Source: Escherichia coli
Lineage (GTDB): Bacteria; Pseudomonadota; Gammaproteobacteria; Enterobacterales; Enterobacteriaceae
Direction: 5' to 3' (one strand)
Length of the DNA: 64,000 nucleotides
NCBI RefSeq assembly: GCF_024700885.2
Contig: NZ_CP117016.1
In this document: in pieces, positions 3,718-48,124 of the stretch
Position numbering within the stretch: the stretch's first letter is position 1
How the letters are laid out: every line of letters begins with the position of its first letter
Position numbers and translations under genes: made by a program
The notes under the pieces: generated by a model
Told to the model about the DNA's origin: nothing
Seen by the model: only the letters and a program-made list of their open reading frames with translations
The model's database searches: none

Positions 3718-5763
3718 TTATACGTTCAAGCCACGATGTTGCAGCATCGGCATAATCTGAGGTGCCTTACCGCGCCATTGTCGATACAGGCGTTCCAGAT
3801 CTTCGCTGTTACCTCTGGAAAGAATCGCCTCGCGAAAACGCCGCCCATTTTCACGCGTTAATCCGCCCTGCTCAACAAACCACTGGTAACCATCATCGGC
3901 CAACATTTGCGTCCACAGATAAGCGTAATAACCTGCGGCATATCCGCCACCAAAAATATGGGCGAAATAACTGCTGCGATAGCGTGGCGGTATAGCAGGA
4001 AGATCCATATTTTCCGCCACCAGCGCCCGCAATTCGAAATCATCGACATCCTGCATTGCTTCGTTTTCTTCCAGGCAATGCCAGCGCATATCGAGAAGTG
4101 CGGCGCTAAGCAGTTCGCTCATCTCATACCCTTTATTGAACAGGCTGGCATTACGCATTTTCTGTTGCAGTTCATCAGGCATTGCTGCCCCGCTCTGATA
4201 ATGCCGGGCGTAGCGAGCGAATACCTGCGGATGCGTTGCCCAGTGTTCGTTGATTTGCGACGGAAATTCGACAAAATCACGCGGCGTGTTGGTGCCGGAA
4301 AGCGTGGCATAACGCTGGCGGGCAAAGAGGCCGTGTAGCGTATGACCAAATTCATGGAATAAGGTTATGACATCATCCCAGAGTAACAACGCAGGCTCAC
4401 CGGCAGCGGGTTTCTGATAATTGCAGACGTTATAAATTACCGGATGCGTTTCATTCAGCGTTGATTGCTCAACAAAATTGCCCATCCATGCACCGCCGCT
4501 TTTTGAATCACGGGCGAAGAAATCACCGTAAAATAACGCCAGCCCCACGCCATTATGATCAAAAATTTCCCATACACGAACGTCAGGATGGTAGACAGGA
4601 ATATCAAAACGTTCGACAAACTTAATACCGAAGAGCTGATTCGCAGTCCAGAATACGCCTTCATTCAACACCGTGTTTAATTCGAAATAAGGCTTGAGCT
4701 GCGCTTCATCGAGATCGAATTTCTCACGTCTTACCTGCTCGGCATAAAATGCCCAGTCCCACGGCTGCGCGCTAAACCCGCCCTGCTGCTTATCGATAAC
4801 CGCCTGTATGGAGGCTAATTCATCGCTCGCACGTTGACGCGCCGCTGGAACAATTTCCCGCATAAAGTTGAGTGCTGCTTCTGGCGTTTTTGCCATCTGA
4901 TCGGCGATTTTCCATGCGGCATAATGAGGGAAACCAAGCAGTTTCGCCTGCTGCGCGCGGATCTCCACCAGACGTTGAATGATAGCGCGGGTATCATTGG
5001 CATCATTTTTTTCCGCTCGCGTCCAGCCCGCAGTGAACAGTTTTTCACGCGTCGCACGATCGCGCATTTCGGCAAGCGCCGGTTGTTGGGTGGTATTCAG
5101 CAGCGGAATCAGCCATTTGTTATCCAGACCTTTCTCGCGAGCCGCCTCTGCCGCCAGCGCAATCTCTTGCTCACTTATTCCTGCCAGCTGCGCGATATCG
5201 TTCACAACCAGACCGCCGGATTTATTTGCTGCCAGTAACCGCTGGTTAAACTGGCTGGTCAGGGTCGCAGCTTCTGTATTCAGTACTTTTAATTTTGCTT
5301 TATCAGCTTGCGCAAGTTTGGCTCCGGCAAGGACAAAACGTTGATGAATGACCTCCACCAGGCGGATGGATTCACTATCAAGCCCCAGGGATTCTCGGCG
5401 CTGCCAGACAGCATCTACCCGCGCGAATAATTCACCGTTCAGATAGATATCATTAGCCAGTTCCGCCAGTTCAGCGGAAAACTGTTCATCAAGACGCTGT
5501 AATTCATCATTGGTATGCGCCGCAGTCATCGCAAAAAAGACGCTGGTAACGCGGGTAAGTAATTCTCCGCTTTGTTCCAGTGCCAGAATAGTATTGTTGA
5601 AATCAGGCGTTTGCGGGTTAAGCGCGATGGCAGTAATTTCTGCCCGCTTTTGCAGCATTCCCTCATCGAATGCCGGGCGATAGTGATGATTGGAAATTTG
5701 ATCAAAATGGGGAGCCAGATACGGCAGTGTGCTTTGCACAAGGAAAGGATTCATTGTTGTCAT
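3718..5763 (-). CDS. dcp: Dipeptidyl carboxypeptidase II (M3 family)
   Basis: HEFGH zinc motif is present. The start was set at MTTMNPFLVQ (ATG 5763), giving 681 aa. Confidence 0.92.
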   Translation of the reverse strand: MTTMNPFLVQSTLPYLAPHFDQISNHHYRPAFDEGMLQKRAEITAIALNPQTPDFNNTILALEQSGELLTRVTSVFFAMTAAHTNDELQRLDEQFSAELAELANDIYLNGELFARVDAVWQRRESLGLDSESIRLVEVIHQRFVLAGAKLAQADKAKLKVLNTEAATLTSQFNQRLLAANKSGGLVVNDIAQLAGISEQEIALAAEAAREKGLDNKWLIPLLNTTQQPALAEMRDRATREKLFTAGWTRAEKNDANDTRAIIQRLVEIRAQQAKLLGFPHYAAWKIADQMAKTPEAALNFMREIVPAARQRASDELASIQAVIDKQQGGFSAQPWDWAFYAEQVRREKFDLDEAQLKPYFELNTVLNEGVFWTANQLFGIKFVERFDIPVYHPDVRVWEIFDHNGVGLALFYGDFFARDSKSGGAWMGNFVEQSTLNETHPVIYNVCNYQKPAAGEPALLLWDDVITLFHEFGHTLHGLFARQRYATLSGTNTPRDFVEFPSQINEHWATHPQVFARYARHYQSGAAMPDELQQKMRNASLFNKGYEMSELLSAALLDMRWHCLEENEAMQDVDDFELRALVAENMDLPAIPPRYRSSYFAHIFGGGYAAGYYAYLWTQMLADDGYQWFVEQGGLTRENGRRFREAILSRGNSEDLERLYRQWRGKAPQIMPMLQHRGLNV

Positions 5764-10809: not shown

Positions 10810-11829
10810 TTATTCAGAAAAAGTGAGTAAGACTTTGCAGCAATGCTTTTGATCCTGTTCAAATAAACTAATGGCATCAGCAACATGCTGGAAATCAAAC
10901 GTATGGGTAATTAATTTTTCTGGTTTAATTAACCCTTTACTTAACCAGTCGATAACGACCGGGAATTTATTTGCATTTAAGCGTGAAGAGAAAATAGAGA
11001 GTTCTTTTCCGGTAATTCCTTGCTGAATCACTTCAGACGGTTCACTGGAGAAGCCCATCAATACAATACGTGCCGCTGGAGAAGCCAGCGTTACGGCCTC
11101 TTTCAGGATAGAAGGATGACAAGCCGCATCGATAATTAATGTCGGCTTTATGCCTTTTTCAGCGAAAATCTCGCCAAGCGGTGTCTGGCTGTTATTAATC
11201 GCCCAGTCAGCCCCGCTCTCTTTCGCTTTTTCCAGTCGTTCATCAATGCGATCGGCAACAATCACATTTTTAACGTTATAGACGCCTTTTAATACCTGAA
11301 CGATCGTCAGGCCGATTGGACCGGCACCGTAAACCAGAACGGTATCATTTTCAGTCGGTTGACCATGACCGGTTACGTTAGCCGCAATGGTAAAAGGTTC
11401 GATCATCACCGCATATTGATCGGCCACTGCTTCAGGAATTTTCCACGCATTTTTTGCCGGAACCACGGCATATTCACTGAAACCACCGTCAGCGTGCACA
11501 CCTAATACAGCCAGTGTCGTACAAACGTTCGGCTTACCTATAGAGCACGGATAGCAATGCCCACAGCTGACCACCGGATCGACAGCAACGCGTTCACCGA
11601 CTCTGGCGCTTTCCACGCCTTCACCCACTGCATCAATGACGCCAAAGAATTCATGTCCAATGACGCGCGGATATTTCGCAAAAGGATTATGCCCACGATA
11701 AATATGGCTATCTGAACCACAAATCCCGGCAAGTTTCACTTTTACTCGTACTTCACCCGCTGACGGGGTGGGTATTTCACGTTCGATAATTGCCAGTTGA
11801 TTCGGTTTTTCAATTAAAATGCTTTTCAT
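10810..11829 (-). CDS. rspB: Zn-dependent dehydrogenase RspB
   Basis: GHEFFG and the GxGxxG motif are present. The start was set at MKSILIEKP, giving 339 aa. Confidence 0.9.
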   Translation of the reverse strand: MKSILIEKPNQLAIIEREIPTPSAGEVRVKVKLAGICGSDSHIYRGHNPFAKYPRVIGHEFFGVIDAVGEGVESARVGERVAVDPVVSCGHCYPCSIGKPNVCTTLAVLGVHADGGFSEYAVVPAKNAWKIPEAVADQYAVMIEPFTIAANVTGHGQPTENDTVLVYGAGPIGLTIVQVLKGVYNVKNVIVADRIDERLEKAKESGADWAINNSQTPLGEIFAEKGIKPTLIIDAACHPSILKEAVTLASPAARIVLMGFSSEPSEVIQQGITGKELSIFSSRLNANKFPVVIDWLSKGLIKPEKLITHTFDFQHVADAISLFEQDQKHCCKVLLTFSE

Positions 11830-31826: not shown

Positions 31827-31991
31827 ATGGCAAAGCCGATCATCACGCTCAATGGCCTAAAAATCGTCATTATGTTGGGAATGCTGGTCATTATTCTCTG
31901 CGGTATCCGTTTTGCCGCCGAGATCATCGTGCCGTTTATTCTCGCATTATTTATTGCTGTTATATATAACTTATTTCGCATAACACATTGA
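31827..31991 (+). pseudogene. tqsA: tqsA (AI-2 exporter) 5' fragment, truncated by island insertion
   Basis: [45 protein letters not shown] runs into island DNA (IYNLFRITH*). The continuation [11 protein letters not shown] resumes at 47227. Confidence 0.9.
31955..31963. repeat. att core copy (integrase-distal junction; I call it attL by window position)
   Basis: TGCTGTTAT, identical to 47218..47226. Confidence 0.85.
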
Positions 31992-32037
31992 TTTAATTAA
32001 ATAATTAACACCGCAAAAAGTGCCAAAAATCGCAAAA

Positions 32038-32060
32038 TGACTACACCAGTGACTACACCG
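32038..32060 (+). repeat. 23-bp arm repeat TGACTACACCAGTGACTACACCG (left arm)
   Basis: A perfect copy lies at 47068..47090 in the same orientation. It is internally a tandem GACTACACC x2. Similarity continues for about 10 more bp (TCG[G/T]TGCAC). Confidence 0.85.
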
Positions 32061-32077
32061 TTCGGTGCACTGTATGA

Positions 32078-32102
32078 AACAACGTGGAACAAATAGACAC
32101 AA
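32078..32102 (+). repeat. 10-bp-phased (A/C)ACAA array, left arm (3 units)
   Basis: AACAA at 32078 and 32088, CACAA at 32098. Confidence 0.7.
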
Positions 32103-32415
32103 GAAATATACAGGCGGATCATCTTTCCAGGGGGAAGCACACCAATTCATGAGGGGCGTTAATGTCGATATGGGGATCCCCACCTACCGGAATTTTTTTC
32201 CGGTTAAACGTTAATCAGGCTGGTGGGCTTTACCTGTTCGGTAGGTGTTATGATTATCGTAATACCTTTCCCCCAATGGGGTAAAAGCATCAACCGTAAC
32301 GAAAGTCGTTATGGTTGCCACTGATACCCCAAATTTGGGTATCACGAGTAAGCCCCAAAATCTGGGTGTTACTCTTACTACCCAAACTACGGGTAGTTTC
32401 CGTAGTTTCATGGTC

Positions 32416-32435
32416 GAGTTGCAGATCTGCAACTC
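32416..32435. repeat. Perfect 20-bp palindrome GAGTTGCAGATCTGCAACTC
   Basis: Read directly from the sequence. It lies in a non-coding 0.7-kb island end, next to three CCCAAA..GGGT dyads (about 32324-32396) and a tandem GTAGTTTC x2. Confidence 0.8.
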
Positions 32436-32689
32436 CCCCATTAACCACAGGCGAATTTCCGCCTTCGGTCATTCCTTAATCATCTGCGTAATCATAATGA
32501 TTATTCAGCAAGCGCAATTTTGCGCTTTGCTTAAAGTTCAGCGAGTTACCGCGCCGACTTCCTCAAATTGAGGTTTCCGAAAATATCAGCGGGTTAGCGA
32601 TTAAGCTGACCATTAATTAAACTGCGAAAATGTCGTAGTTGTGAGGGGTGTAGCCAACCCATTTTTGGGCCGTCGGGAATATCAACCAG

Positions 32690-32971
32690 TTACCGCCGCA
32701 ACCGCTCCGGCTTCTTCCAGTGGTACGTTATTTTCTCCTTCTCCCGATACATCTCCACGCGGCGACGGTAGGCCAGCAACTCAAGAACTCTGGTTCGTAT
32801 GTTGCGCATATCCACGCCATTAAGTTCTATACCATCACGGCGCATCACCTCAGCAACAACACGCGCATAGTTTTCGGCTGTCACGCTGTCCGGCTGCGTG
32901 GCCTGTTCGTCAGCCTGCTGGCTGATTCCGGCAACGCGGCGGATTAATCCCGTTATTTCGGCTTCTGTCAT
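32690..32971 (-). CDS. Hypothetical protein (93 aa) downstream of terL
   Basis: ATG with SD gaggt. It lies 13 nt after the TerL stop. No family was recognised. Confidence 0.6.
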   Translation of the reverse strand: MTEAEITGLIRRVAGISQQADEQATQPDSVTAENYARVVAEVMRRDGIELNGVDMRNIRTRVLELLAYRRRVEMYREKEKITYHWKKPERLRR

Positions 32972-32984
32972 GCTGCTGACCTCA

Positions 32985-34646
32985 TTACACCCCGCTAAAT
33001 TCTTCCAGTTTCTGGCGGTGGCTGTCGCTTATATCAAAAGCAAAATCCTCATGCTCTGCCTGGAATGTACCAAACGCCATCAGCGCCGCCACGCTCGGGT
33101 CTATCTTGTTCGGTGATTTTTTCTTGTTCGGCTTGATATTGGCGTTCGCGTCACTCTGCATCACGACGTTACTCATCGACCAGGACAACACCGGATCGCC
33201 ACGATGCACAATCACCCTGCGGTTAACAAAAACTTCGAACGATTTCGCCGCCGGACTGAATCTGAGGTAGGTTTGCGGGAACGGCTCCACCTCAAAACCT
33301 GCCCCCTGTAATTGCGTTCTGAGATGCGTGGCGTTCCACGTATCAAAGCCCACCAGCCTGATATTAAATTTCTCCGCGTCCTGCATGATGTCATCTCTGA
33401 TCCGGTCGTAATCAATGCAGTCGCCAGGCGTTGTGCGTATCCAGCCTGCTTTAGCCCACTGACGATAGATGGCGCGGTTTTTATTGGCGGGGTTCTGTAG
33501 CTGAAATTCCGGCAGATAGTGACGGGAAACCAGCATAATGGTTTTACCGACCGGAAAGGCATAGCACACGCTGGAAATATCGCTGGTTGATGATAAGTCC
33601 AGCCCCGCGTAACACTCCTGGCCGTGTAAATCTTCCTCCGTGAACGTTCCGGCACACTCAGCCCATGCGCCGTTACCCATCCACGGGGTAGCCCCCTGGC
33701 ACCAGATATTAAATCGCTTTGTCATCATCTCCACCCACTGCGACGGAATACCCCGCGCTTTCTGGATGGTTGAGGCCAGTTTTTCACGATCGACGGAAAC
33801 ATCAATATTAGGGTTCGCCTTTATCCACATCGCCGGATCATCAACCTCGTTTTCGTCGTCCAGTTCGTAAATCAGTACAAAAATTGAATCGTTAACCTCT
33901 TCGCCGTCCAGGATCTGGCAGCAATAATCATAGTGCTGCTTACAGGCTGAAACGACGTTGCTGCCTGATGTGGTAATGGCAAATAACAGCCCTTCGGGAC
34001 GTGCGCCCATCCCCAGCTCAAGCGCGGAATAAACGCCGTTATCGGGGTGCAAGTGGTATTCGTCCACGATGGAAAGGCTGGGGTTTGTTCCCTCGATGGT
34101 TGCCGCTTTTGCTGCCAGCGGCTTTAACAGGCTGTTGCTTTTCGGGTGTATCACCTTATGCGCCTGAATATTCACCCGCCTGCGTAACGGTCGGGATAAA
34201 AGGCACATCTGACGCGCATCATCAAAGACGATCCGCGCCTGGTCACGGCTCACCGCTGCGGTGTAGATATCCTGCTGACCGTTCTCCATAATCAGAAACC
34301 AGTTAGCCAGAATCGCGGCGGTCGTGGATTTCGCATTTTTGCGCGGCACTTCGATAAAGGCGCTCGTGTATTTGCGCCGTCCGGTGGCCTTAACCTTAAA
34401 GCCGAGGATGCACGCAAAGGCGAACTGCTGCCACGGCTCCAGCTCAATGGGTCTGCCACGCATCGGTCCTTTTACGTGCGGGCACACCCTGGAAAAGGCA
34501 ATAAACCGCTCCACAACCTCACGATCGAACGTGTAAAGGGGGCTTTTAAGGTCCGAAAAGTACCGTTTAACGGCCTGTTTCAGCCGTTTACAGGCCGGAA
34601 TTTTGCCCGTTTTTACGTCTTCTGCGTACTTATTCCAGGCGGTCAA
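32985..34646 (-). CDS. terL: Terminase large subunit (Terminase_1-type)
   Basis: 553 aa with an ATPase region (VPRKNAKST Walker A-like, IVDEYH Walker B) and a C-terminal nuclease. The TTG start overlaps the terS 3' end and has SD gagga. Confidence 0.85.
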   Translation of the reverse strand: MTAWNKYAEDVKTGKIPACKRLKQAVKRYFSDLKSPLYTFDREVVERFIAFSRVCPHVKGPMRGRPIELEPWQQFAFACILGFKVKATGRRKYTSAFIEVPRKNAKSTTAAILANWFLIMENGQQDIYTAAVSRDQARIVFDDARQMCLLSRPLRRRVNIQAHKVIHPKSNSLLKPLAAKAATIEGTNPSLSIVDEYHLHPDNGVYSALELGMGARPEGLLFAITTSGSNVVSACKQHYDYCCQILDGEEVNDSIFVLIYELDDENEVDDPAMWIKANPNIDVSVDREKLASTIQKARGIPSQWVEMMTKRFNIWCQGATPWMGNGAWAECAGTFTEEDLHGQECYAGLDLSSTSDISSVCYAFPVGKTIMLVSRHYLPEFQLQNPANKNRAIYRQWAKAGWIRTTPGDCIDYDRIRDDIMQDAEKFNIRLVGFDTWNATHLRTQLQGAGFEVEPFPQTYLRFSPAAKSFEVFVNRRVIVHRGDPVLSWSMSNVVMQSDANANIKPNKKKSPNKIDPSVAALMAFGTFQAEHEDFAFDISDSHRQKLEEFSGV

Positions 34647-39539: not shown

Positions 39540-39565
39540 GAACAACGTGGAACAACCACGAACAA
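39540..39565 (+). repeat. Three GAACAA units at exact 10-bp spacing upstream of the capsid operon
   Basis: GAACAA at 39540, 39550 and 39560. Confidence 0.8.
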
Positions 39566-39583
39566 ATAATTTACAAAACATGA

Positions 39584-39606
39584 CAAAAAGCCGGATTGCT
39601 CCGGCT
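39584..39606 (-). terminator. Rho-independent terminator ending the early/replication operon
   Basis: The minus strand reads agccggagcaatccggct + ttttgt, immediately after the stop at 39613. Confidence 0.7.
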
Positions 39607-43962: not shown

Positions 43963-44182
43963 GTACCCCTCCGCATTTTTTTTCGTTAGAAATAAGCGTT
44001 CTTCTTTCCTGTTCATCGCTCAGGAATACGCAGACCTCACCGCTAAGGCGTTTAAGTAAGCCGATGATTGCCCCTGATTCGCTGTCGGTCATCATGCCAG
44101 GGTAATCCTCTGCCAGTGCGCAAATAACTTCGATTTGGTGGGCGCGTTCTGCTGCCTGTTGTAGTGTGATTTCCTGGCTCAT
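43952..44182 (-). CDS. Hypothetical protein (76 aa)
   Basis: ATGA overlap with the icd-like stop. Confidence 0.5.
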   Translation of the reverse strand: MSQEITLQQAAERAHQIEVICALAEDYPGMMTDSESGAIIGLLKRLSGEVCVFLSDEQERRTLISNEKKCGGVHVQ

Positions 44183-44379
44183 AAGCCTACCCCCTGACGA
44201 ATACGGGCAGCAAATACCATCACGCAGCCAGCCGGAGATTGCTGGCGTGCTTCCTGTTCGCTGGTGGCCTCAATGGTAATCACGCGCGGTTGTGCCGTGC
44301 TCAGGGCGATAAAACGCCAGATGTATTTATTCAGGTTGTGCGAGTCCCGCCCTTGCGGGTGTGTGGTATGATTTCTCAT
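44179..44379 (-). CDS. Icd-like host cell-division inhibitor (66 aa)
   Basis: This is the C-terminal 66 codons of the 340-aa track ORF. ATG at 44379 with SD gaggt. YIWRFIAL...ATSEQEARQ...VFAARIR resembles Icd-like proteins of P4-type elements, from memory. Confidence 0.55.
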   Translation of the reverse strand: MRNHTTHPQGRDSHNLNKYIWRFIALSTAQPRVITIEATSEQEARQQSPAGCVMVFAARIRQGVGL

Positions 44380-44475
44380 AGCTACCTCGATACTTTCGCT
44401 ATCGTTGGTGGTTAGAAGCCCGGTTAGTGTTAGCGCACTGCCGGGTTTCGTCGTTTCTGCACCTTGCGCCAACAA

Positions 44476-44529
44476 GGTGTTGAACACCAATTTAAACCCA
44501 GGTGTTAAACACGTCAAGTGTTGAACACT
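44476..44529. promoter_or_regulatory. Three operator-like 13-bp dyads (GTGTT-N-AACAC) in a divergent promoter region
   Basis: GGTGTTGAACACC 44476-88, GGTGTTAAACACG 44501-13, AGTGTTGAACACT 44517-29. A putative rightward promoter, TTGAAC(44521)-17 nt-CATACT(44544), overlaps the third dyad. Confidence 0.65.
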
Positions 44530-44578
44530 TATTTTTTTTCCTGCATACTGCATTTGTTTTTTATGAGGGGTACACCAC

Positions 44579-44758
44579 ATGGCGACAAAAGCGGTAAACG
44601 CAAAATCACAAACCGTTGCGGCAAGGGTTCCGCATGAAGTTATGAACAATGTTGAGGCGGTAAAAATGCCTGGCGAAAGTACGGGGCAATTTGTTACTGC
44701 GGCATTAAAACGAGAAGTTGAATATCGCCAGCGGCGCAAGGCCAAAGAACCAGAGTAA
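44579..44758 (+). CDS. Ribbon-helix-helix (Arc/CopG-like) DNA-binding protein, 59 aa, candidate island repressor
   Basis: Hand-translated as MATKAVNAKSQTVAARVPHEVMNNVEAVKMPGESTGQFVTAALKREVEYRQRRKAKEPE*. SD gagggg. It has a beta-strand-helix-helix pattern. It is below the ORF-track cutoff and is one of only two plus-strand genes in the island. Confidence 0.5.
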   Translation: MATKAVNAKSQTVAARVPHEVMNNVEAVKMPGESTGQFVTAALKREVEYRQRRKAKEPE

Positions 44759-44800
44759 TCACCATCAGCGCCGTGGTGTAAGGTATTACGGCGCATTGCT

Positions 44801-44989
44801 ATGCAGGACAACACAATGACCGATAAAGAATTGACCAAAACATTATCACCGGCACGGAAAAGACGGCGCAGAAAGATAGAGCATGAATCAGAAAGATTCG
44901 CGCCATGTGCTTTTGCCCTTGAGCAATTCCTTAAAGAGTACAGGGAAAAGCGCTCATTGCAGGTATGGCAACGAACTGAACCAGACTGA
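44801..44989 (+). CDS. Hypothetical basic protein (57-62 aa)
   Basis: Downstream of the RHH gene and before the plus-strand terminator. Contains an ARKRRRRK stretch. The start may be 44816. Confidence 0.4.
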   Translation: MQDNTMTDKELTKTLSPARKRRRRKIEHESERFAPCAFALEQFLKEYREKRSLQVWQRTEPD

Positions 44990-45084
44990 TTGCATTGCCC
45001 ACCAGCCTGATAACGGCTATCATCCCCGTGCTTATGTTTGGGATCACACACACAAACGGCGCAGCGGGTTATCTGTTCAGAAAG

Positions 45085-45112
45085 GCGGCTCCATTTCGGG
45101 GCCGCTTTTTTT
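45085..45112 (+). terminator. Rho-independent terminator of the rightward RHH unit
   Basis: Stem gcggctcc/ggggccgc (8 bp, one G-U pair) followed by 7 T. Confidence 0.7.
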
Positions 45113-45258
45113 ATACCTGAAAAACCCCAATTTTGTTGTTTTTCAGTTTCACCAGGGCGAACGAATCCCCGCCCACGTTCTGGCGTATATTCAATCTTCA
45201 TGGTTATAGCTCTGTGTTCAGATGATTGATGTGTGGCGGCTGCGTGCCGCCAGCGTGA

Positions 45259-45447
45259 TTAATGAACTGCCTTGCAGCTATCCTTCCAGGCCAGAACCTC
45301 GGATAAAGACCAGCCAACGGAACGACCGCCAAGTTTACGACGTGATGGGAATTGTCCGGCCTTTTCCAGGCGGTAGCGACACGTACGGCTAAGGCCGGTT
45401 AGTTTTTCGCATTCTTTTTCACGTATAAACCGATCAGTGCTTAACAC
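45259..45447 (-). CDS. alpA: AlpA-family regulator / excisionase-type HTH
   Basis: FIREKECEKLTGLSRTCRYRLEKAGQFPSRRKLGGRSVGWSLSEVLAW is the typical AlpA/Phage_AlpA motif. The favoured start is the GTG at 45447, 5 nt after SD aagggggg. The track ORF extends to a TTG at 45528. Confidence 0.8.
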   Translation of the reverse strand: MLSTDRFIREKECEKLTGLSRTCRYRLEKAGQFPSRRKLGGRSVGWSLSEVLAWKDSCKAVH

Positions 45448-45720
45448 TATTGCCCCCCTTTCGTTTCTTAAAGAGTCATCAGGTGTCTTATTGTGTCGTA
45501 TTGTTCCCGCTAGAGTGATGAATGGCAAATACTGAGGATGTATGATTTACAGAAAATGAAACAGTAAGAATAAAATTTTTTAAATTCATGTTAATACAAA
45601 GGCATAAAATATTGTTCCATGCCTTTTTTCTCGCTCTTTAAAGAGTGATTCGCTAGTGTACAAAAAACCAGTAACGCATTAAAAATCAGCTACTTATAAA
45701 TCCGTACGCTTTTTCGCCTC

Positions 45721-45765
45721 TTGTTCGTAGTTGTTCCACATTGTTGCTCATTGTTGCACGTTGTA
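45721..45765 (-). repeat. Five TTGTT/TTGTA units at exact 10-bp spacing (inverse orientation of the GAACAA arrays), int-alpA intergenic
   Basis: Units start at 45721, 45731, 45741, 45751 and 45761. Confidence 0.8.
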
Positions 45766-45812: not shown

Positions 45813-47042
45813 TTATTTTCTTCTGGCTACGGGTAGCGTGGTTACGTTTTCATGTGTTCCCGCCAGTATCCCTAACCGCTCCGTCCACATATCCAGCGCA
45901 TTGCGTTTCGCATCCAGATAACGGGAATGATTATAAACTCGCTGCATTCCTGGCATCTGGTGGCCTGTAAGCTGCTCCACGACATGCGGATCAACGCCTA
46001 AATCGTTCAGCATGGTTGTAAAGGTGCGCCGGATGTCATGCAGTGACCAGTGAGGGTGATTAAGCCTCCTGTACGCTAATCTTCCATACTGCGATACGCT
46101 GGCCTCCTGTTTCACTTCCCCCAGCAATAAGCCCGTGTGCCTGTTCTGCTCCACCAGCTGCGTGACGAACGGCAGGATCGCTTCCGGTATGGGCCGGAAT
46201 ATTGCGACCTTCGTTTTGCTGTGCTCCTTCGGAACGGTCCATAGCATTTCCGTAAAATCCCACTCCCCGATCTCCGATAACCTCAGTTCTACCGTTCTGG
46301 CTCCGAAGACAATCAGGAGGCGGATTAACGCGACGTAGTAAGGGGAGAATATTTTTTTGTCCAGTGCCTGCAATAATTCGCCAAGTTCTTTGTTACTTAA
46401 GACACGTTCGCTTATATCCGGTTTTTTCCCAACGTCCGCAACGTTCAGATCGTCCAGAACGTTGCTGATTGCATAGCGCCGCCTACGGCAGAACTTAAGC
46501 GCCTGTTTGCACGCCTGTAGCACGAATCCGGCAGTAACAGGCGTTCGCTTTGCCACCTGGTCAAAACAGGCCAGCCAGTGCCGTAGCTCGCATTTATCCA
46601 GCGGCATAGCACCAATCTGCTGTATTACGTGATTATTAAGTCGCCTTTTCAGGGCGATATAATCCACGCGGTTTTCCTTTACGTAATACTCAAGCCAGTA
46701 GGTGAGCGCATCGCCAACCGTTACGGGCTTTAACGCTTCCTGTACGGTGTAATTCATCTCATGACGTGGATTTTTCCCCTCAGCCAGCCATGTGCGACAC
46801 TGTGCGGCTTTTTCCCTGGCTGCTTTCAGGCTCAGATCAGGATAACTTCCCAGCTTAATGCGTTCGGGTCGTGTCTCCCTTCCCGTTCCGGCCCTGTATG
46901 TGAAATACCAGGTCAATTTCCCTGATGTTAAATATTTCACGCTCAGGTTTCCGCCATCACTATAAAACGTGTTTTTCTCCGCTGGCTTACCATGAAGTTT
47001 CCTTAGCAAGGTATCGCTCAGTTTGTTCATTGCTCTGCTCAC
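45813..47042 (-). CDS. int: P4-type tyrosine integrase (DUF4102 arm-binding N-terminus + catalytic core)
   Basis: 409 aa, with either a GTG at 47042 or an ATG at 47030 (MNKLSDTLLRKL). The N-terminus is GKLTWYFTYR...LGSYPDLSLKAAR. Catalytic motifs HDIRRT and Y in VYNHSRY are present. Confidence 0.9.
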   Translation of the reverse strand: MSRAMNKLSDTLLRKLHGKPAEKNTFYSDGGNLSVKYLTSGKLTWYFTYRAGTGRETRPERIKLGSYPDLSLKAAREKAAQCRTWLAEGKNPRHEMNYTVQEALKPVTVGDALTYWLEYYVKENRVDYIALKRRLNNHVIQQIGAMPLDKCELRHWLACFDQVAKRTPVTAGFVLQACKQALKFCRRRRYAISNVLDDLNVADVGKKPDISERVLSNKELGELLQALDKKIFSPYYVALIRLLIVFGARTVELRLSEIGEWDFTEMLWTVPKEHSKTKVAIFRPIPEAILPFVTQLVEQNRHTGLLLGEVKQEASVSQYGRLAYRRLNHPHWSLHDIRRTFTTMLNDLGVDPHVVEQLTGHQMPGMQRVYNHSRYLDAKRNALDMWTERLGILAGTHENVTTLPVARRK

Positions 47043-47067
47043 GTTTTACCCCCTCTTTACGAAAAAG

Positions 47068-47090
47068 TGACTACACCAGTGACTACACCG
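47068..47090 (+). repeat. 23-bp arm repeat TGACTACACCAGTGACTACACCG (right arm)
   Basis: Perfect copy of 32038..32060, in the same orientation. Confidence 0.85.
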
Positions 47091-47108
47091 ATCGTTGCAC
47101 AAAGGGCT

Positions 47109-47132
47109 ACAACGTGAAACAAGCTGGAACAA
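47109..47132 (+). repeat. 10-bp-phased ACAA array, right arm (3 units, a 4th at +12)
   Basis: ACAA at 47109, 47119 and 47129, and another at 47141. Confidence 0.7.
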
Positions 47133-47217
47133 GGAAAATCACAAATCTATTGATAATCAAAAACATAATGCACAGCCTGAAACATTATGAAACAGCAAAA
47201 AACACTAAATGATAAAA

Positions 47218-47226
47218 TGCTGTTAT
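47218..47226. repeat. att core copy (integrase-proximal junction; I call it attR by window position)
   Basis: TGCTGTTAT, identical to 31955..31963. Confidence 0.85.
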
Positions 47227-48124
47227 TCTTAACCCGCTGGTGCAACACATGGTCCGCTGGCGTGTGCCGCGTGTACTGGCAGTGTCGATTTTGATGACCA
47301 TCATCGTGATGGCGATGGTGTTGCTGTTAGCTTATCTGGGTTCCGCACTCAACGAGTTGACGCGGACGTTACCGCAATATCGCAACTCTATTATGACGCC
47401 GCTGCAAGCTCTTGAACCGTTGTTGCAACGCGTAGGGATTGACGTCTCAGTTGACCAACTGGCGCATTACATTGATCCGAACGCGGCGATGACGTTGCTC
47501 ACCAACTTATTGACGCAGTTATCTAATGCCATGTCATCAATCTTTTTATTGCTGCTGACGGTGCTGTTTATGCTGCTCGAAGTGCCACAATTGCCCGGAA
47601 AATTTCAGCAAATGATGGCGCGTCCGGTTGAAGGGATGGCGGCGATTCAGCGTGCGATTGACAGTGTGTCTCATTATCTGGTGCTGAAAACAGCCATCAG
47701 CATCATCACCGGCCTGGTCGCCTGGGCGATGCTCGCCGCACTCGATGTTCGCTTCGCTTTTGTCTGGGGATTGCTGGCCTTTGCGCTTAATTACATCCCG
47801 AATATTGGTTCAGTTCTCGCGGCAATCCCCCCTATTGCTCAGGTACTGGTGTTTAATGGCTTCTACGAAGCGTTGCTGGTGCTGGCGGGATATCTGCTGA
47901 TTAATCTGGTCTTCGGCAATATTCTGGAGCCACGCATCATGGGGCGTGGGCTGGGGCTTTCCACATTGGTGGTATTTTTGTCGTTGATTTTTTGGGGATG
48001 GTTGTTAGGACCGGTGGGTATGCTGCTTTCCGTGCCGTTGACAATTATTGTCAAAATTGCGCTTGAACAAACAGCGGGAGGTCAAAGCATCGCCGTTCTG
48101 TTAAGCGATCTCAATAAAGAGTGA
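47218..48124 (+). pseudogene. tqsA: tqsA 3' fragment (codons ~44-344)
   Basis: The frame continues (A)[21 protein letters not shown]...LSDLNKE*. An in-frame TAA lies at 47213-15 just upstream, so there is no island-provided N-terminus. Confidence 0.9.

Follow-up and report, generated by a model that had tools for sequence, protein, structure and literature searches.

Candidate integrase and AlpA sites in the attachment arms of a capsid-forming satellite island in Escherichia coli tqsA

The island in tqsA and the repeats in its two arms

The 64,000-nucleotide stretch of Escherichia coli DNA analysed here (from contig NZ_CP117016.1; hereafter the window) carries a 15,263-bp insertion in tqsA, located between two copies of the 9-bp sequence TGCTGTTAT (31955-31963 and 47218-47226) when compared with the intact gene of strain K-12. 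All genes of the inserted island lie on the minus strand. Gene calls drawn from open reading frames (ORFs), Pfam and the RefSeq annotation of a 100% identical locus (strain MLI114) place in the early part int, which encodes an integrase (Int) with an Arm-DNA-bind_3 and a catalytic domain, followed by alpA, icd-like and other small genes, a DUF4222 gene, a D5-type primase gene, ssb and perC. The packaging part encodes the major capsid protein, prohead protease, portal, head closure and head-tail connector proteins, an HNH protein, TerS and TerL, and no tail or lysis genes are present among the island ORFs or in the RefSeq annotation. Phage-inducible chromosomal islands that form capsids (cfPICIs) have been defined by int, alpA and a primase together with capsid, protease, portal, head-tail connector/adaptor, HNH, TerS and TerL genes, without tail or lysis genes, in about 14-15 kb (PMC10085698). 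By its gene set, in which all of the defining genes are present, the island is such a cfPICI. Each of its attachment (att) arms contains a doubled motif joined to an array of short units spaced one helical turn apart, and these elements probably serve as arm-type sites for Int and as sites for AlpA acting as recombination directionality factor (RDF), respectively.

An earlier note on this DNA described a perfect 23-bp repeat in the two arms, and the 23-mer TGACTACACCAGTGACTACACCG is indeed found at 32038-32060 in the int-distal arm and at 47068-47090 in the int-proximal arm, on the plus strand in both cases. Allowing up to three mismatches yields no third match in the 64 kb, and 100 shuffles predict none. 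Each copy is itself a tandem, as the same note had it, consisting of GACTACACC twice with a period of 12 bp (in the distal arm, TGACTACACCAG-TGACTACACCG), and the four exact occurrences of this 9-mer in the window are exactly these four; in the sense direction of the island, the distal doublet reads GGTGTAGTCA twice. The long imperfect direct repeat that was said to surround the 23-mer amounts to 76 nt at 76% identity (32034-32109 versus 47064-47139). With the core fixed by comparison to K-12, 83 bp separate the core start from the start of the left repeat, and the right repeat ends 128 bp before the core, which bears out the distances first given (83 and about 130 bp). Relative to the core centre, the distal doublet starts at +79 bp and the proximal doublet ends at -133 bp, and the latter lies 25 bp upstream of the int start codon.

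Directly 3′ of the 23-mer is TCGGTGCAC on the left and TCGTTGCAC on the right, and beyond these, again in keeping with the earlier description, ACAA units recur in exact 10-bp phase, starting in each arm 9-19 bp beyond the doublet. The distal array (32066-32102) comprises a degenerate unit within TCGGTGCAC and then ACAA at 32079, 32089 and 32099, on the far side of the doublet from the core. In the proximal arm the array (47098-47142), with ACAA at 47099, 47109, 47119 and 47129, is situated between the core and the doublet. Three exact ACAA units at 10-bp spacing occur 7 times in the window versus 0.01 in shuffled sequence, and three AACAA units with at most two mismatches occur 9 times versus 0.19. 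The phased ACAA matches are confined to this one island, where they fall in four places: the two arms, 39541-39565 and 45711-45765.

Further elements lie between the doublets and the presumptive crossover. The int-distal copy of the core resides within the tqsA codons F-I-A-V-I, and the empty K-12 site aligns up to the 9-mer from both sides; a tqsA core, ATAACAGCA, was already published for the islands EcCI042 and EcCIK1516 (Fillol-Salom et al. 2018, PMC6092414, Table S1). Between this core copy and the distal doublet is AATCAATGTGTTA (31981-31993, minus strand), an exact match to the consensus of integration host factor (IHF) and a candidate bending site, which is one of 8 matches to WATCAANNNNTTR in the window. 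In the proximal arm, the IHF-like block ATAATCAAAAACATA (47153-47167) has one mismatch to the consensus, is kept in all six proximal arms aligned and may have a similar role. Adjacent to the int-proximal core copy is the block GCAAAAAACACTAAATGATAAAA (47195-47217), which is kept across elements with different cores and is possibly a core-type Int site on the island side.

The placement of the core is corroborated by a related element in IMG/VR, an 11.1-kb contig (IMGVR_UViG_3300045988_152974; L250) whose terminal regions (1-300 and 10980-11098) share an overlap of 119 bp. The contig is therefore circular, with a PICI circle of about 10,979 bp. Its Int is 100% identical to that of the window, and its attP junction consists of the two arms of the window joined exactly at the 9-mer core, from which it follows that elements with such an integrase and such arms do excise.

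The two proteins proposed to act on the arms are encoded next to the proximal module. The int gene (45813-47042, minus strand) has a GTG start and encodes a 409-aa P4-type tyrosine integrase in which residues R249, K276, H335, R338, H361 and Y370 are invariant in the alignment. The DUF4102 arm-binding domain attributed to its N-terminus in the earlier note is recovered at residues 8-95 as Arm-DNA-bind_3 (PF13356, the former DUF4102; E=1.4e-18), with matches to the arm domains of PDB 3JTZ and 3JU0 and a further structural match to 3RMP. Following int is alpA (45259-45447, minus strand; RefSeq WP_000953272), whose 62-aa product belongs to the Phage_AlpA winged-helix regulators (PF05930, E=5e-17; AlpA-family match to PDB 8C3T) and is a candidate RDF and activator.

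The insertion also has a consequence for the host gene. The AI-2 exporter gene tqsA (31827-31963 and 47218-48124) is split after about codon 45 without restoration of the frame. Both halves are pseudogene fragments in RefSeq, and carriers of the island are therefore tqsA mutants.

Conservation and covariation in related islands

Int-plus-arm homologues with 70-92% nucleotide identity are present in 1,240 of 5,426 complete E. coli genomes, and the left-arm module by itself is found in 882 of this same set. Relatives were fetched at five other chromosomal sites (phoQ/roxA for L003 and for L329, which is EcCICFT073; smrA/abgR for L004; clpS/cspD for L005 and L007; thiM/rcnR for L006) and include classical as well as capsid-forming PICIs, some encoding a primase and others a RepA-type helicase. 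In every one of them a doublet of 12-bp period is present in the two arms in direct orientation, and a phased (G/A/C)AACAA array follows each copy. In the arm alignments the doublet, the array, the IHF-like block and the core-adjacent block are retained as the intervening sequence drifts, and the window, L003 and L004 likewise retain the block AAATCAATG in their distal arms. The conservation in related islands that the earlier note had singled out for checking is thus evident, and it extends to the functional EcCICFT073, for which integration through int-attP and AlpA-driven excision have been shown experimentally (Fillol-Salom et al. 2018, PMC6092414).

This pattern bears on the possibility that the modules are functionless, being either a duplication or gene-conversion tract or else replication iterons or packaging signals that lie near the ends by chance. 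Consistent with such an origin, the modules form an imperfect direct repeat of 76 nt, and the P4 alpha-type primases bind TGTTC-containing iterons (the P4 ori type 1 repeats are annotated). Yet the arms display a phylogenetic footprint, with motifs kept while spacers diverge, and the same modules are found in cos-type PICIs and in cfPICIs that have their own terminase; chance, moreover, is excluded by the shuffle counts. A relic origin is in our estimation highly improbable, and sequence conservation effectively refutes it. A role for the AACAA arrays as replication iterons, by analogy with P4 TGTTCACC, was rejected because islands with a RepA helicase in place of the primase bear the same arrays.

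Geometry is retained together with sequence. In attP, 211-212 bp separate the two doublets in each of six cases (tqsA, phoQ/roxA, smrA/abgR, the two clpS/cspD elements and thiM/rcnR). The distance from core centre to doublet shifts by a few base pairs among these relatives, since the crossover may lie anywhere within the identity block. A doublet spacing that is fixed around the crossover, across different cores, argues for a recombination complex.

The identity of the proteins that bind each element can be approached through covariation, for which relatives retrieved from IMG/VR with an Int alignment (at least 75% identity, most contigs ending at the int start) were also used. The doublet of the window type, GGTGTAGTCAct-GGTGTAGTCA (GTCACT), occurs with Int N-terminal domains at least 90% identical to that of the window and with AlpA of type 1. 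In L003, L004, L005, L007 and EcCICFT073 the doublet is GGTGTAGTTAat-GGTGTAGT(T/C)A (GTTAAT), the N-domain is about 72-82% identical to that of the window, and AlpA is of type 1 or 2. In L006 the doublet is TGTGTGGTCAgt-TGTGTGGTCA and the N-domain is 65% identical to that of the window, with an AlpA that is 90-92% identical to those of L005 and L007; the TGTGTGGTCA class as a whole has N-domains less than 70% identical to the window's (61-65% to the four closest group members). The arrays follow a different partner, the variant TTGTTCC/TTGTTTC going with AlpA type 1 and TTGTTCG with AlpA type 2/3. Within the two AlpA types sampled, the doublet variant is independent of AlpA type and the array variant is independent of the doublet variant. 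Although only about 10 bp separate the two elements, the doublet thus changes with the Int N-domain and the array with AlpA, a double dissociation that favours Int as the likely ligand of the former and AlpA as that of the latter.

The same comparison speaks to an exchange of these roles, in which the 10-bp-phased AACAA units would be the Int arm-type sites, like lambda P'1-P'3, and the doublet would be bound by AlpA or another island protein. The arm sites of the lambda P' arm are likewise adjacent direct repeats, which lends this assignment some appeal. But the array variant goes with AlpA type rather than with Int clade, and the doublet, which goes with the clade of the Int N-domain, does not differ between AlpA types 1 and 2. 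Arrays also occur at PalpA, a site of known AlpA action with no known Int role; the array unit has a core of 5-6 bp, as is RDF-like, whereas the 9-10 bp core of the doublet resembles that of arm-type sites; and in P4 it is the analogous 12-bp doublets that are annotated as arm repeats. Exchanged roles are therefore considered improbable, even though for the doublet of another group, the helper-embedded PICIs (HE-PICIs), binding by AlpA or a different protein was allowed for by Tommasini et al. (PMC10111431).

A third island or host protein, such as a PerC-like, DUF4222 or Icd-like protein, could in principle occupy the doublets in place of Int, and several small island proteins have no assigned function. 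Covariation of the site sequence is with the Int N-domain, however, rather than with other proteins of the island, and PICIs with differing modules (RepA helicase or primase, with or without perC, classical or capsid-forming) share the doublet when the Int clade is the same. In addition, the int-attP segment is sufficient for integration of EcCICFT073 (PMC6092414). We regard a third binder as distinctly improbable.

Mosaicism between relatives points in the same direction as covariation. Across int and the arm, the window and L003 are 90-100% identical except in a patch of 60-72% identity (47076-46927) that covers part of the proximal doublet, the 5′ untranslated region and Int residues 1-40, and the unlinked distal doublet is changed likewise. 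The arm-binding domain and the proximal sites appear to have been exchanged as a cassette. Overall, the claim of the earlier note that the layout is that of Int arm-type and RDF sites flanking attP finds in silico support in conservation, geometry, covariation and precedent, and we consider it probable that the doublets are Int arm-type sites and the arrays AlpA sites.

Two broader searches returned little of relevance. A scan of 596 Gb of contigs with ACTACACCNNNNACTACACC gave 120 matches in unrelated taxa, which were set aside as chance because sixteen specified bases are too few for a collection of that size, and a literature search for the motif recovered unrelated primer matches only.

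Arrays outside the arms and control of int and alpA

Two of the four places with phased AACAA units are arrays without doublets, located outside the att arms. At the head of the int-alpA intergenic region (45711-45765, minus strand) array scans identify five units in the sense orientation relative to alpA, and the homologous array of EcCICFT073, which has six units, lies inside the 2128-2583 fragment that was used as PalpA-lacZ. AlpA activates this fragment, and AlpA overexpression causes the island to excise and replicate (Fillol-Salom et al. 2018, PMC6092414). The other internal array (39541-39565) has three AACAA units with no mismatch, within AACAACGTGGAACAACCACGAACAA (39541-39585), and lies past the terminator hairpin of perC (39588-39606), some 215 bp upstream of where the capsid gene starts (39325, minus strand). 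It may be an AlpA-controlled late promoter or an antitermination site for the packaging operon. No array of this type was found in L003-L007 at the same stringency. There is no doublet adjoining the 39541 array, and the idea that it is a vestigial att arm was dropped for lack of one.

Such arrays raise the question of whether the modules in the arms are mainly transcriptional control elements, that is, operators or promoters for int and other operons, bound by AlpA and/or a host or helper factor, with the distal copy serving transcription across the circularised attP rather than an intasome. The proximal module precedes the int start by 25-100 bp, arrays are found upstream of both alpA and the capsid operon, and the equivalent sites of KplE1 repress intS. 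Scans of both arms and the int-alpA region nevertheless uncovered no convincing int promoter and no convincing sigma-70 promoter in either arm, the best candidate being a weak TTCATA-18-TATGTT at 47191-47162. The spacing of the doublets, fixed at 211-212 bp around the crossover across cores, is likewise at odds with a mainly transcriptional role, as is the lack of an effect of AlpA on Pint of EcCICFT073. As a substitute for sites that build an intasome, transcriptional control is unlikely; it is compatible with the recombination role rather than exclusive of it, and the proximal doublet may have a second role as an int operator.

Other features of the island stand apart from the modules. Between the distal arm and the last ORF are about 590 bp of non-coding sequence (32100-32690), dense in hairpins (32277-32331, 32325-32395 and 32407-32444) and in 48-bp-spaced direct repeats ATATCAGCGGGTTAGCG (32534, 32582 and 32678); this stretch may be the packaging (cos/pac) region. 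The arms of an 18-nt perfect inverted repeat, ATCAGGCTGGTGGGCTTT / AAAGCCCACCAGCCTGAT, are located at 32214-32231 and 33345-33362, 1,113 nt apart, and the repeat extends across the last small ORF and the terL 3′ end. An Rfam search over the island returned only a sub-threshold symR-like match, and no RNA that would account for the repeats. This match, in the icd-like zone (44380-44452, plus strand) and antisense to island genes, scores 33 bits against a gathering threshold of 61 (E=0.005) and may represent an antisense or immunity RNA, or chance. In the same zone is a 340-aa ORF (44179-45201) that has no Pfam match and is absent from the RefSeq annotation, which instead places an icd-like pseudogene, an opposite-strand YlcI/YnfO gene and small genes there; the ORF is probably not a real gene.

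Precedents and a proposed intasome

The arms resemble those of several characterised elements. The P4 record (X51522) annotates 12-bp 'attP arm sequence repeat' units as two doublets, one a short way upstream of int (3942-3965) and the other across the core (4078-4097) at 4151-4174; these arm repeats are reportedly due to Pierson and Kahn in 1987. P4 has the same type of Int N-terminal domain as the island, its co-oriented, adjacent 12-bp doublets flank the core, and its proximal doublet lies about 15-25 bp upstream of int. In other respects the two differ. P4 uses the motif GGGGGCAnAnnn in place of GGTGTAGTCA and separates its doublets by about 186 bp, as against 211-212 bp in the island; additional inverted copies occur at its int start, and its core is formed by the 20-bp 3′ end of tRNA-Leu. 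The integrases are only 24% identical, and P4 has no obvious phased AACAA arrays.

A comparable logic operates in lambda, whose attP contains the arm sites P1, P2 and P'1-3, the Xis sites X1, X1.5 and X2, and the IHF sites H1, H2 and H'. Lambda shares with the island a heterobivalent integrase and RDF sites arranged as direct repeats, with a spacing of one helical turn, that adjoin an Int arm site. Its N-domain belongs to a different fold family, however, and its arms hold two and three arm sites with Xis sites in one arm only, whereas the island has an identical module of two Int and three to four RDF sites, in direct orientation, in both arms. More generally, RDFs typically have sites that repeat directly at intervals of one helical turn, and phage 186 Apl combines the functions of RDF and transcription regulator (PMC7498355).

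In KplE1 (CPS-53), where binding has been proven, attL consists of the core, three 10-bp-phased TorI sites (GTTCG), the IntS arm sites and the intS ATG, in this order, and both proteins repress intS (Panis et al. 2010, PMC2951348). IntS has an Arm-DNA-bind_3 domain, the order of sites matches that of the island, and GTTCG is close to the TTGTTCG/TTGTTCC of the island family. TorI, on the other hand, is 29% identical to AlpA over 42 aa and was not recovered as a member of the Pfam AlpA family, the KplE1 arm motif contains TAAA, and its sites are proven binding sites, whereas those of the island are candidates.

The HE-PICIs match the island in geometry. They contain a doubled motif, tgTGTATTGCantgTGTATTGCa, twice per attP at 81+/-2 and 132+/-2 bp from the centre, for which the proposed binders were Int arm domains, AlpA or another protein; the motif was stated to be absent from other PICIs, for which equivalents were not reported (Tommasini, Mageeney & Williams 2023, PMC10111431). 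This geometry was reproduced on HE-PICIs from IMG/VR, where the doublet gap is 210-213 bp. The island, where the distances are 79 and 133 bp, shares with them the 12-bp period of the doublet and the presence of two co-oriented copies per attP. The HE-PICI core TGTATTGC is nevertheless absent from the island, whose motif GGTGTAGTCA in the same orientation has only GTGT in common with it, and the Int N-domains are 44-52% identical. HE-PICIs also differ in inserting into prophage late genes, in having alpA abutting int, and in that no AACAA arrays were seen beside their doublets. The GTGT core is common to three motif classes, which therefore look like diverged homologous sites. Among the E. coli PICIs EcCICFT073, EcCI042 and EcCIDI14 (PMC6092414) and the cfPICIs (PMC10085698), the same int/alpA module is found; EcCI042 shares the tqsA core and EcCICFT073 the doublets and arrays, but arm sites were not described in either study (Fillol-Salom et al. 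2018; de Sousa et al. 2023). Since this architecture has been published for close relatives, it is not new in kind: the island motif is a new sequence of known layout, and with it the observation made on HE-PICIs also covers the classical integrase clade of E. coli PICIs and cfPICIs.

On the assignment that we favour, each arm would offer two adjacent Int sites, making four in total, or one for each N-terminal domain of an Int tetramer, and each doublet would be fused to three or four AACAA units one helical turn apart that serve as sites for AlpA as RDF. The attP of the excised circle, read in the sense direction, would run through the distal half as array, doublet, about 79 bp with the IHF site and the 9-bp core, and from there through the conserved block, the IHF-like block, the array, the doublet and 25 bp to the int start. 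Int could then bridge the arm doublets to the core sites, with IHF bending the DNA. Upon induction by a helper phage, AlpA would coat the arrays beside the Int-bound doublets and thereby reshape the arms, such that recombination between attL and attR (excision) is favoured. Through the arrays that precede alpA and the capsid operon, AlpA may couple excision to island transcription. Any upstream promoter would be separated from the int start codon by the proximal module, and Int and AlpA bound to this module would therefore probably also damp int expression, as in KplE1 and P4.

Several points weigh against this assignment. The binders are assigned from covariation and analogy, and part of the covariation could be hitch-hiking that stems from the physical linkage of int, alpA and the proximal arm; the doublets could also be homogenised by gene conversion from one arm to the other, without any constraint from a protein. 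HE-PICIs retain a single motif at merely 65% Int N-domain identity, so that the relation between motif and domain divergence is not a simple one. The position of the distal array beyond its doublet is not the classical lambda arrangement. No strict array was found upstream of alpA in L005, L006 or L007. Finally, Pint-lacZ expression in EcCICFT073 did not respond to AlpA (Fillol-Salom et al. 2018, PMC6092414), so that any binding of AlpA to the proximal array would be without measurable transcriptional effect in that assay; the primers for this fusion were not located in the 13-kb CFT073 locus.

The arm doublets also shed light on published att cores. The 'att site core' listed for EcCIDI14, CGGTGTAGTTAATGGTGTAGTTAATT (Fillol-Salom et al. 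2018, PMC6092414, Table S1), is the arm doublet. For PICIs at the yejM site the same table gives TTTGTAGTTATACGTTTGTAGTTATACGG, and in strain ATCC 25922 (L330, 1250-1300 and 12507-12533) this sequence is a doublet (TTTGTAGTTATACG twice), about 140 bp from the 3′ end of tRNA-Pro, where the real identity block CTCTCGTG... sits; the proximal arm of this element has two direct and two inverted units. Judged by these sequences, the longest terminal direct repeat of such islands is an arm site and not the crossover core.

More tentatively, and with less than even confidence, a single scaffold might be common to the whole Gram-negative PICI/cfPICI/P4-like integrase radiation, consisting of two co-oriented doublets about 212 bp apart on either side of the crossover, each fused to an AlpA array, in a quasi-symmetric intasome unlike that of lambda. 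Clade-specific sites would then constitute a recognition code for Arm-DNA-bind_3, and several published PICI cores (EcCIDI14 and the yejM/tRNA-Pro group) would be arm sites. AlpA would be a joint switch that at once reverses the directionality of recombination and activates island transcription, a notion prompted by the identical module of two Int and three to four AlpA sites in both arms and by the arrays at PalpA and the late (capsid) operon.

Understanding of this class of recombination systems is unchanged by these observations, and a specialist would not be surprised by them. What they contribute is a base-resolved att map for a common family of E. coli satellites, including the tractable EcCICFT073, with defined sites at which AlpA-driven excision can be tested, and a correction of published att cores, at least one of which is an arm doublet. 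The natural variants of Int N-domain and doublet, at a fixed geometry, may in addition be usable for engineering or re-targeting integrases.

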